From Escherichia coli (GTDB taxonomy: Bacteria; Pseudomonadota; Gammaproteobacteria; Enterobacterales; Enterobacteriaceae), in NCBI RefSeq assembly GCF_003790525.1, contig NZ_CP033635.1: 64,000 nt of DNA; one strand, written 5' to 3'. A program made the position numbers. Shown one piece after another: positions 18,001 through 21,000 of this stretch (positions within the stretch are counted from its first letter, which is position 1; every line of letters starts with the position of its first letter).

Positions 18001-21000
18001 TTCCGGGATGGTTTGTTCCGTTTCAATCACTCTTAATCAGAGAGTTGTAGCATTGCTTAATGGCATGATGCCGTAAAGTTTTACCGCGGTGATTAATGAT
18101 GTGAAGTCAATCCAAATCAACGGAGATCTCTCATCATGAATCAACCAATACACAATGCTTACTGGTTATCCCGTTTTGACAGCCTTCTCGACAGTGCCCT
18201 GTCGCAGCACCGTGCCGTCTCGTTAATCCGGGTGGATTTACGTTTCCCTGAGTATATGCCTGTCACCATCATGGATCCCGATCCGGATTCAGCGGTGATT
18301 TCTCGTTTTTTCGAATCCCTGAAAGCCAAAATCCAGGCTTACCAGCGGAAAAAACGACGTGCCAACAAGCGTGTGCGTGCAACCACTCTGCGTTATTTCT
18401 GGTGTCGGGAGTTTGGCAAGGAAAAAGGCAGGAAACATTATCACGTGATATTGCTGCTCAACAAAGATACCTGGTGCTCGCCAGGGGATTTCAGCGAACC
18501 ATCTTCGCTGGCGACGATGATCCTGGAGGCATGGTGCAGCGCCCTGCATCTTGAGGCCTGGCAAGGCGATGGCCTGGTCCATTTTTCCAGGTGGACGCCT
18601 TCCCGTAAACCAGCATCGTCTGATGCTCGCCCTTCTTCCGATGACACGCCTTTGTCGGGTGGATGTTCTGATACCAGGAAGGCTTCAGAAAAAAAGCCGG
18701 GTGAAGCCGCTGTTCTCTGGATCAAGCGTGGTGATGTGGAAGCGCTGCAGAAAGCCCGGAACAGAGCCAGTTATCTCGTGAAATATGAGACGAAGCAGCA
18801 TGACGGTTCCGGGCAACGTAATTATGGTTGCAGTCGTGGGCCGGGGCGTCTGCTGGATGGCAGGTGAGCCCTGTAAAACGACATCCGGTGCCTGAGCTTA
18901 TGCTACAGGACGTTGGCTGACGCCCTTAGCTCGTTTTCTGAAAAAGTCGTCCTGAAGTCATGCAACGGTATTTTTCTCTGCTTTCGCTCCTGGAAACACT
19001 CCGTCGGTAAAACCTTACTGTCCTGCTTAATGATGTGAACCGAAGTCAACGGAGATCATTCATTCTGAACCTGCATCCGGTGTTCTTTCCCTTATCTTCC
19101 CGTTCTGCTTCGGTTCTTCACTTATTCCATCAATCTCATTCGTAAACCATAACACGTCAGCTCATTCACGGGCAGGACGCGTTGTGGGCTGCGCATAACG
19201 GAGCATATCTTATGAATGCTATCCCTTATTTCGACTATAGCCTGGCCCCCTTCTGGCCATCTTATCAGAGCAAAGTTATCGGTGTCCTTGAGCGTGCGCT
19301 GCGTGAGCAGTCCGGCTCCAGGATACGGCGGATCCTGCTTCGTCTGCCGTGTGAATATGACAGTACCTTCAGCAGCAGAAAGACCTGGTTTGGTATGGAT
19401 TTTATCGAAACCGTCAGTGCGCTGATGAATGCAACCCCCGGACGCGACCTCTGCTGGCTCCTGACACGTCATCCTGAAAAACCGGAATACCACGTGGTGC
19501 TGTGCGTCAGACAGGAATATTTCGACGGCCCTGAGCTGGACCGGTTGATTCTGGATGCCTGGAGCAACGTACTGGGCTTCGCGGCACCGGGTGAAGCAGC
19601 ACCGTACCAGAAACAGATAACCCGGGATGTGGTGCTGGACAGTTGTTCACCGGACTGCGAAGAGAGACTCAAAGAGCTGATCTGGGCGTTCAGTGATTTC
19701 GCCCGCGATCGTCGTGGTGTGCGCGATCCGGAAGCCCGTTACCTCGCCGGTAATCCCTGGTATCCCGTAGCAGGCCAGCTCTGAAAGCTCAGCTCAGCAG
19801 ATTCTCCCGCATTTGCCCAACATTCATAAATCTCACAGAGGACATTCTGACCATGTTGACCTCAATGACAGGTCACGACAGCGTATTGCTGCGTGCCGAC
19901 GATCCCCTGATCGACATGAACTACATCACCAGCTTCACTGGTATGACCGACAAATGGTTTTACAAGCTGATCAGTGAAGGCCATTTCCCTAAACCCATCA
20001 AACTGGGGCGCAGCAGCCGCTGGTACAAAAGTGAAGTGGAGCAGTGGATGCAGCAACGAATCGAGGCATCACGAGGGGCAGCAGCATGAAACGTGTTGTA
20101 ATGCCGGTACGCTGGCAATGTGCAAAATACCAGCGTTGGTATTGTGGAAATCAGCCCTGTCCCTGGTGCTGGCGACCTGCTGCCCCCGTCTGTCATTCCT
20201 CGTTCTTCGCTGTAACAGGCATCGTACCGGTCTCGGCGTGCTTTCCTGCGTACCGACACCGGTTCAGCAACATTCAAGGGGATCAAATCGTGCAAATAAC
20301 CGAAACCGTACTTTCAGAGCCGGTGGAAATCCGGCGTTTTATTCAGCAGGCGGTGGATCACTGGCCGCGTCTGCTGGCCGTCCACTTCACACTCCATTCG
20401 GCAGAAGGAAACATCAACGGACAACAGATTCATGCATTCTGTACTTCCTTTTACCGACAGGTGCACGAGCGTATTACTGAACGTAATCACACGGCCAGTC
20501 CAGCACCACCGGTGGTATTACGCTGGTTGCGGGAACAACATGGAGGAGCAACAATGCGATGCCTGTTGCTGCTCAGCCAGACGAGCATTTGCCATCCACG
20601 GGTCAGTGCCACGGTTGATGAAGAATGTTCGCAACGGGTGGATTTATTGCAACAGACATGGCGGGTGATAAGTGCTGACGGACAATGCCGGGTGGAAAGG
20701 TGTTTTCAGGCTGCCCGGGGTGATACATCCGGCCAGTATATTGCGTTAAAAACAGTTGCATTGTCTCTGGGGTTACCGGTTGTGACCGGTATTACCCATC
20801 GCCCGGTACAGCGCTGTACATTGATTACAGCTCAGTGAACAGCGCTGTTGTGCAGTCAACGAGGTTTTCTGTCTTTTCGTCGGTCATTCAGCATCATTAA
20901 ACGGGTCTCTGCCTCTTTCTGTTCCTGTGGTGTCACTTCCCCGCACGGCTGACCGTTCAGGTTGTAACGGGCGCCACCTGCTATTAACGCACGGTAATAG

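Follow-up and report, generated by a model that had tools for sequence, protein, structure and literature searches.

The systems closest to the element described here range from plasmid leaders and origins to regulator-binding sites. In F-like plasmids, the traJ leader sequesters its ribosome-binding site (RBS) in a hairpin that is controlled by FinP and FinO. Rolling-circle plasmids such as pMV158 typically carry the Rep origin, an inverted repeat with a conserved core, just 5' of the rep gene. Integrative elements, including P4-like elements, phage-inducible chromosomal islands (PICIs) and CP4-57-type islands with their alpA module, have divergent control regions. In Pseudomonas aeruginosa, AlpA binds the element GGGACG-N5-GGTA between the -35 and -10 hexamers of two promoters, each of which is followed by intrinsic terminators (PMC7969949). 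Here we describe a leader unit of ~65-68 nucleotides (nt) that occurs as two direct copies in a 64,000-nt stretch of Escherichia coli DNA (contig NZ_CP033635.1; this whole stretch is referred to as the window). Copy 1 stands directly before a gene of the YagK/YfjJ family (paralog 1), and copy 2 lies upstream of a degenerate YagK-type gene (paralog 2).

The unit is a real cis element, maintained by selection and not described before, that belongs to one widespread island lineage of E. coli; a literature search on the motif strings, the family names and the function of these proteins returned nothing relevant. The ~65-nt cassette probably regulates the YagK-type genes. The reading that we favor, tentatively and at somewhat less than an even chance, is that the two copies are a 5' control cassette, or leader, of YagK-type genes that was multiplied together with its gene and kept by selection as the coding sequences diverged. 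The original prediction had offered a shared regulatory site, a recombination site or the junction of a duplication as explanations, and the first is the best supported of the three, with the same footprint at both copies and the RBS of copy 1 inside a stable hairpin.

Anatomy and footprint of the repeated unit

Either copy of the unit runs from a palindrome (GTAA-N4-TTAC) through an 8-nt variable linker, box A, a spacer and box B to a TCAT..TGAA tail (Table 1). Box A and the box B 12-mer, which includes GGAG, are identical in the two copies, and the spacer between them measures 11 nt in copy 1 and 6 nt in copy 2. A repeat finder and pairwise alignment agree on 76-77% ungapped identity, in two registers offset by this 5-nt indel. 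The similarity begins on the left with the palindrome (GTAAAGTTTTAC in copy 1, GTAAAACCTTAC in copy 2) and on the right, where TCATCATGAA is matched to TCATTCTGAA, it passes through the ATG of paralog 1, with ATGAA aligned to CTGAA in copy 2. Beyond ~68 nt, pairwise alignment finds no similarity between the two upstream regions.

A two-string motif had been predicted in front of both genes, at 18092-18135 and 19029-19065. It is indeed there, its boxes lie close to these positions, and the similarity is wider than had been noted; the ranges capture the right element, although they are off by 1-8 nt. Box A is exact in both copies as claimed, whereas the second string, the 13-mer GTCAACGGAGATC, is perfect only in copy 2 (19045-19057) and has one mismatch (ATCAACGGAGATC) in copy 1 (18116-18128). 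As predicted, copy 1 directly abuts the start codon of paralog 1 (ATG at 18136), and the 'about 150 bp' given for the distance before paralog 2 agrees with the 143-155 nt that we find between the end of copy 2 and the ATG at 19212. On alignment and on a search of related islands, the similarity is not part of a longer plain duplication that has no conserved core elsewhere.

By our estimate, a lone exact 13-mer repeat in 64 kilobases (kb) is not significant. The collinear unit is significant, with a local alignment score of z = 15.7 against shuffles, and an nhmmer profile derived from related copies hits these two places in the window and no others, at E ~1e-18. Alignment and profile search found no third copy before paralog 3 (the open reading frame (ORF) that follows alpA), before alpA or elsewhere in the window. 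A candidate decayed copy in the trailer of paralog 1 (18940-18975) was dismissed as not significant (z 1.3). NNNAA pentamers run through the spacer region, as GTGAA, GTCAA, TCCAA and ATCAA in copy 1 (18102-18126) and as GTGAA, CCGAA and GTCAA in copy 2 (19036-19055), and the 5-nt length difference equals one such pentamer, which suggests spacer slippage. A Dam GATC site in box B was dropped as a candidate feature; it is missing in several variants (L007, L018, L046 and L071).

Each upstream region was found in ~1,900 of 5,426 complete E. coli genomes, at up to 6-7 places per genome; ~35% of the complete genomes have the island module, often in multiple copies. In metagenome contigs, hits to a relaxed two-box pattern with 12 nt between the pattern cores (44 loci) always abutted the ATG of a YagK-A gene, and those with 7 nt (35 loci) always lay in the copy-2 context. 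All other gap lengths had unrelated flanks, so there are only two genuine classes, and the scan placed the motif in these two fixed contexts and at no new insertion site. Members of the close protein subfamily come almost exclusively from Escherichia; the relatives that follow, from Providencia, Brenneria and others, share 34-43% identity. A search of genome contigs with paralog 1 gave 2 loci only, and scans of viral contigs gave 1 and 4. At one locus (L003, 3288-4046), copy 1 is cut short within box A by an IS1 insertion, with only AATGATGTGAA onward left, in an island remnant beside dcuS/yjdI; the apparent homology boundary at the motif there is due to this incidental insertion.

Conservation was measured as mean pairwise identity per segment over 36 distinct copy-1 and 30 distinct copy-2 sequences, with the 18 positions used for locus retrieval excluded. 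The palindrome is 95.7% identical among copy-1 sequences and 94.0% among copy-2 sequences, the 8-nt linker 81% and 75%, the 5' edge of box A 92% and 100%, and the tail after box B 99% and 93.5%. The copy-2 spacer stands at 93% (that of copy 1 falls inside the retrieval pattern), and the flanking non-coding DNA at 67-76% around copy 1 and 57-77% around copy 2. Because each copy keeps a pattern of conserved, variable but fixed-length, and conserved segments while its flanks drift, both copies are independently footprinted, and on these alignments the pattern is a phylogenetic footprint at both. In a divergent allele (L002), the copy-2 block is unchanged, the untranslated region (UTR) after it is only ~55-70% identical, and conservation returns only at the real initiation region of paralog 2.

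The same alignments bear on whether copy 2 does anything at all. It might be no more than what is left of the 5' end of a vanished YagK gene, without function, and seem conserved only because the islands are young or the copies are homogenised. The codon aligned to the start codon of paralog 1 is dead (CTG, CTT or TTA among the variants) with no ORF after it, copy 2 shows no fold of its own, one variant has lost it, and the element is restricted to one island lineage. Yet within one and the same set of sequences the adjacent intergenic DNA is 57-77% and the linker 75% identical, while the palindrome and boxes hold at 92-100%. The spacer lengths also stay distinct (12 versus 7 nt between pattern cores) at every locus, so there is no sign of homogenisation, and the exact stretches common to the copies are at most 14 nt, too short for efficient RecA-dependent conversion, which needs roughly 23-27 base pairs of identity. 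We regard a functionless copy 2 as quite improbable.

A fixed-length variable stretch between two conserved ones would also fit a -35, spacer and -10, and the unit could be a promoter that reads leftward (minus strand), with its -35 from the reverse complement of box A (TTCACA), its -10 from the palindrome and the linker inside a 16-nt spacer. The candidate hexamers are TTCACA-16-TAAGGT in copy 2, with TAAGTT also available as -10, and TTCACA-16/17-TAAAAC/AAAACT in copy 1. Copy 1 would then serve the divergent leftward genes or a small ORF, and copy 2 would give RNA antisense to the upstream YagK gene. Position weight matrix (PWM) scores of 7.2 (copy 1) and 7.8 (copy 2) lie at the 99.7th-99.8th percentile of the window and at equivalent positions, the -10 of copy-2 variants retains TA...T as its middle varies (TAAGGT, TAAGTT, TAGATT, TAGTTT), and distant relatives have the YagK leader in a divergent intergenic region beside a leftward GTPase operon. 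However, the equivalent positions are not independent evidence because the copies are homologous. The copy-1 hexamer lacks the -7 T, the built-in scan does not call either site, a transcript from copy 1 would be antisense into the plus-strand gene for a 407-amino-acid (aa) protein, and the conservation of box B and the tail, far past the hexamers, would be left unexplained. We consider a leftward promoter unlikely.

The predicted copy 1 hairpin and a possible role of copy 2

The RNA of copy 1 (18088-18146, plus strand) is predicted to fold into a hairpin that pairs box A with the start-codon region and UCC with the GGA of the Shine-Dalgarno (SD) sequence. The fold has a free energy between -19.4 and -23.3 kcal/mol (z between -3.8 and -3.9), and the pairing probability from the SD to the AUG is 0.79 versus 0.49 in shuffles, a value reached by 0/100 of them. 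Stable pairing of the SD and start codon beyond what composition would give was found at copy 1 only. Folded as single-stranded DNA (ssDNA), copy 1 is unremarkable on both strands (z -1.4 to -1.75), and copy 2 gives z -0.4 and +0.2. One natural variant (L083) changes A to C and so turns an A/G mismatch of the hairpin into a C-G pair; the changes in other variants break pairs. Among the leaders of distant YagK genes, which differ in sequence, the SD or start codon lies in a stem in ~6/10 diverged leaders, which is no more than suggestive. A mini-ORF within box A (ATG-ATG-TGA) was treated as a coincidence because there is no conserved SD at copy 2.

A structured leader that contains an RBS, as in traJ, would also suit a mechanism at the level of RNA. 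The boxes could be sites on one long plus-strand transcript for a trans partner: the ProQ/FinO-family protein of the island or, alternatively, a small antisense RNA, on the model of traJ/FinP/FinO control. A ProQ/FinO-domain gene lies 1.8 kb downstream, boxes of 12-13 nt have the size of a small-RNA seed match, and RNA pairing would, we infer, tolerate variable spacing. Against this, the 64-kb window holds no notable complement to the unit besides its own opposite strand, and Rfam 15 gives no match at gathering thresholds anywhere in the window and nothing at E <= 5 over both units. Neither the built-in nor the PWM scan finds an antisense promoter reading through the boxes, and in the closest complete genomes (L001 and L002) the homologue of the ProQ/FinO ORF is annotated with a frameshift. 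The chance that the boxes are targets of such a partner seems to us slim.

Under the favored reading of a 5' control cassette, a tandem duplication inside a CP4-57/CP4-6-type E. coli island would have copied the cassette together with its gene. At copy 1, box B is the SD region of paralog 1 and box A is the 5' arm of the hairpin that buries SD and AUG, and translation of the HUH-type protein would normally be throttled until the hairpin is opened. The palindrome may serve as operator to a DNA-binding protein that is dimeric and encoded by the island. Copy 2 heads the conserved block of paralog 2, alpA and paralog 3, and would place this operon under the factor or factors that act on paralog 1.

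Several observations weigh against such a cassette. Folded as RNA, copy 2 does no better than its shuffles (z +0.5 to +0.7), and because it has neither such a fold nor a start codon after it, the hairpin mechanism covers copy 1 only. The copy 1 hairpin is almost invariant in the 36 variants, which offer too little variation for covariation. The built-in scan finds no convincing rightward sigma-70 promoter, with hexamers 16-18 nt apart, in or just 5' of either copy, and the best plus-strand candidates in the PWM scan (97-99th percentile) occupy non-equivalent positions in the two copies. The 5-nt difference in box spacing would be awkward for a single protein touching both boxes, and no regulator was identified for the cassette. 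Matches by eye to consensus sequences for CRP, Fur, CpxR, LexA, sigma-28, sigma-54 and sigma-E were partial at best, not common to both copies and no more than leads. Likeness to the leaders of distant YagK genes is marginal (1/8 at p 0.003, L133 with copy 1; none with copy 2), and therefore we do not claim family-wide conservation of the sequence. In at least one natural deletion variant (L015, reverse strand, 9618-9995), copy 2 and most of paralog 2 are gone and alpA is kept; the junction joins the first ~105 codons of YagK-X, a further YagK-type gene described below, to the last ~20 codons of paralog 2.

The DNA between copy 2 and paralog 2 has features of its own. An upstream ORF after copy 2 was rejected, with no start codon at the aligned position in the variants and a stop after 26 codons. 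Most alleles have the weak terminator-like hairpin directly after copy 2; in the L002-type allele it is replaced, and the terminator scan does not call it. The translation-initiation region of paralog 2 resembles the segment of copy 1 from box B to the ATG (local alignment z 3.8, p 0.006). The 5' UTR before paralog 2 (19140-19211) is very stably structured, with a free energy of -32.7 kcal/mol for -70..+20 (z -4.0), and is separate from the copy-2 unit.

Genes, cargo slot and proposed history of the cassette

The window is ~98.6% identical to E. coli chromosomes, and the region is an island module of the CP4-57/CP4-6 type. Its order is a GTPase gene (minus strand), the gene for the 407-aa protein (plus strand), 1.6 kb of non-coding DNA, paralog 1, paralog 2, alpA, the third ORF and the ProQ/FinO-family gene (minus strand). 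Islands of the Providencia and Brenneria type keep YagK ahead of AlpA, 3' of a divergent intergenic region.

That both genes are YagK-like, as originally predicted, is solid for the first. Paralog 1 scores 128.3 bits against PF11726 (cut-off 25.8, E 3.6e-37), its HUH motif (KHYHV) and tyrosine motif (YLVKYETK) sit in conserved columns of the family and agree with the motifs of the HUH superfamily, and it has the HUH nuclease / origin-binding-domain fold. Paralog 2 stays below the same cut-off (11.9 bits, E 0.22), matches paralog 1 at 25% identity over 52 aa (E 0.001), and aligns to the family without the first HUH histidine and the catalytic tyrosine. Judged from its sequence, it is at best a remote, degenerate relative of YagK.

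Table 1. Positions of the leader unit, its parts and the neighboring features in the window
Feature	Coordinates	Strand	Basis or remark
Copy 1, leader unit (palindrome to tail through paralog 1 ATG)	18073-18140	+	Alignment, profile; hardly varies among 36 distinct variants
Copy 1 palindrome CCGTAAAGTTTTACCG, core GTAAAGTTTTAC at 18073-18084	18071-18086	.	Small hairpin in folds
Copy 1 linker CGCGGTGA, 8 nt	18085-18092	.	Length fixed, sequence variable; identity below both neighbors
Box A, copy 1, TTAATGATGTGAA; 5' arm of RBS-occluding hairpin	18093-18105	+	Exact match, folds
Box B, copy 1, TCAACGGAGATC; SD GGAG of paralog 1 at 18122-18125	18117-18128	+	Sequence
Extended conserved block at copy 2 (GGAAACACTCCGTCG + unit up to TCATTCA)	18992-19062	+	92-100% pairwise identity versus 57-77% in flanks
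Copy 2, leader unit	19007-19069	+	Alignment, profile
Copy 2 palindrome CGGTAAAACCTTACTG, core 19007-19018; CGGTAA-N4-TTACCG in most relatives	19005-19020	.	Sequence, variants
Box A, copy 2, TTAATGATGTGAA	19027-19039	+	Exact match
Box B, copy 2, TCAACGGAGATC, GGAG kept; aligned start codon CTG (19065-19067), no ORF after	19046-19057	+	Sequence, variants
Weak terminator-like hairpin GAACCTGCATCCGGTGTTC, then U/C-rich tail TTTCCCTTATCTT	19067-19098	+	Fold; directly after copy 2
Translation-initiation region of paralog 2, AACGGAG-N8-ATGAAT	19196-19217	+	91% conserved
Paralog 1, YagK/YfjJ-family protein, 243 aa, HYH + YxxK motifs, HUH-nuclease fold	18136-18867	+	PF11726
Paralog 2, degenerate YagK-type protein, 190 aa	19212-19784	+	Pairwise alignment, family alignment; names from the Prokaryotic Genome Annotation Pipeline (PGAP) vary
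AlpA-family regulator	19853-20089	+	PF05930 E 2e-10
Third ORF (paralog 3)	20290-20838
ProQ/FinO-domain ORF, 114 aa, convergent on YagK-alpA block	20856-21200	-	PF04352 E 3e-21

Many related islands carry 3-9 kb of variable DNA between paralog 1 and copy 2, and the window is the short form. The contents of this cargo slot include a TIR protein, DUF3987, IS21, a pseudouridine kinase/glycosidase with a nucleoside transporter, and unknown genes (seen in L006, L034, L054, L088, L094, L096, L099, L101 and L105). The breakpoints cluster at ~18965-18989, ~20-40 nt 5' of the copy 2 palindrome and outside the motif. Imperfect repeats of ~10-12 nt (CTnCTTTCGnTC) occur at the cargo junctions. The insert always ends in a third, HUH-intact YagK-type gene, YagK-X (188 aa; REP_ORF2-G2P, E 3.5e-5), whose stop codon lies ~35 nt before the copy-2 block and whose leader has only the CnGTAA-N4-TTACCG palindrome in common with the unit. 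The copy 2 cassette marks the fixed right border of a variable slot whose cargo includes defence-type genes.

Direct repeats that flank variable cargo, next to a gene for an HUH-fold protein, raise a further alternative, namely that the unit is the recognition site of the HUH-type YagK protein (an origin, a nick site or an initiation/termination site) and that its copies bracket YagK-A and the cargo slot for rolling-circle-like copying or movement. The position just 5' of the gene recalls the Rep origins of plasmids such as pMV158. To look for products of such a reaction, we used a chimeric query made of the copy-1 left flank and the copy-2 right flank and required at least 80% coverage; no place in any of the 5,426 E. 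coli genomes, ~1,900 of them with the element, carried this hybrid junction. The reciprocal chimeric query tells nothing, as it joined the native arrangement into a single place. The cargo breakpoints fall outside the motif, the motif keeps to its two fixed contexts, and neither of its strands folds exceptionally as ssDNA. Relaxase- and Rep-type sites are usually most conserved from hairpin to nick, whereas the 8 nt between palindrome and box A are the least conserved part of the unit. The recombination site of the original prediction therefore finds no support in the absence of hybrid junctions and the position of the breakpoints, and we consider an HUH recognition site unlikely. If the element were the substrate of an HUH protein and not regulatory, it would represent a new mobilisation mechanism.

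Less probable still is a more specific version, in which the direct copies are initiation- and termination-type sites for the HUH-fold YagK and the bracketed segment, YagK-A plus the 3-9 kb slot that ends in a second HUH gene, is a rolling-circle-mobilised cassette nested in CP4-type islands. Such a cassette would be a new route for the exchange of defence and metabolic cargo between islands.

The regulatory leader that we favor can be placed in a history of the locus. Relatives of the Providencia, Brenneria and metagenome types have one YagK gene, directly before alpA and beside leftward genes, and copy 2 therefore occupies the position of the ancestral YagK-alpA control region. The simplest history would be that a cassette of leader plus YagK gene was tandemly multiplied and that the proteins diverged strongly while leader elements were retained. 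The proposed duplication junction survives in part: the unit acts as the 5' leader of a tandem cassette of leader plus YagK-type gene, but the DNA similarity covers ~68 nt only and the proteins are ~25% identical.

The non-coding DNA 5' of paralog 1 (16554-18072, ~1.5 kb) shows no convincing ORF, a strong G+T bias on the plus strand and conservation in blocks (16917-17648 and from 17949 on) around a variable middle. It contains a 21-nt imperfect tandem repeat of ~76% identity (17067-17108), two terminator-like hairpins on the plus strand (17853-17875 and 17953-17969) and the equivalent (17782-17955) of a small minus-strand ORF of 57 aa that PGAP annotates in relatives.

Comparison with described systems

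For now, the element adds solidly but modestly to what is annotated in a widespread island family. The core genes of the module, of YagK/YfjJ type and adjacent to alpA, are uncharacterised, and we show here that the YagK-type protein has an HUH-nuclease fold. A footprinted cassette that is used twice offers a handle on how these islands switch on the YagK-alpA block and, through it, on how excision or mobilisation may be controlled.

Like RBS-sequestering leaders such as that of traJ, copy 1 holds an SD and start codon in a stable hairpin directly 5' of a gene of a mobile element, and a ProQ/FinO-family gene is encoded near the unit. Unlike traJ, the locus shows no antisense RNA, no antisense promoter and no Rfam match, and it has a second copy of the unit that is not attached to a start codon. 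The double-strand origin of pMV158, which lies 5' of copG-repB, is similar in its inverted repeat and conserved core directly before the gene of an HUH-fold protein. The unit differs from it in having no known nick site, in that the stretch next to its palindrome is the least conserved, in its unexceptional ssDNA hairpins and in that no recombination or termination products were seen.

The AlpA element of P. aeruginosa itself is absent from both units, and its count across the window, 37, is in line with the 32.5 expected by chance. The boxes are not framed by a plus-strand pair of -35 and -10 hexamers as that element is, and the terminator-like hairpin after copy 2 is not kept in the L002 allele. 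What the two cases have in common is a short element that recurs in two control regions of a single regulon with an AlpA-family protein among its members, along with the weak terminator-like hairpin that follows copy 2.

The divergent control regions of integrative elements provide the last comparison. The leaders of yagK and yfjJ in E. coli K-12 do not have the motif, and no operator or promoter has been mapped in the present lineage. The unit nonetheless resembles the control regions of P4-like elements, PICIs and CP4-57-type islands with an alpA module in that it heads a conserved YagK-alpA block beside leftward genes and sits at the edge of a variable cargo slot.

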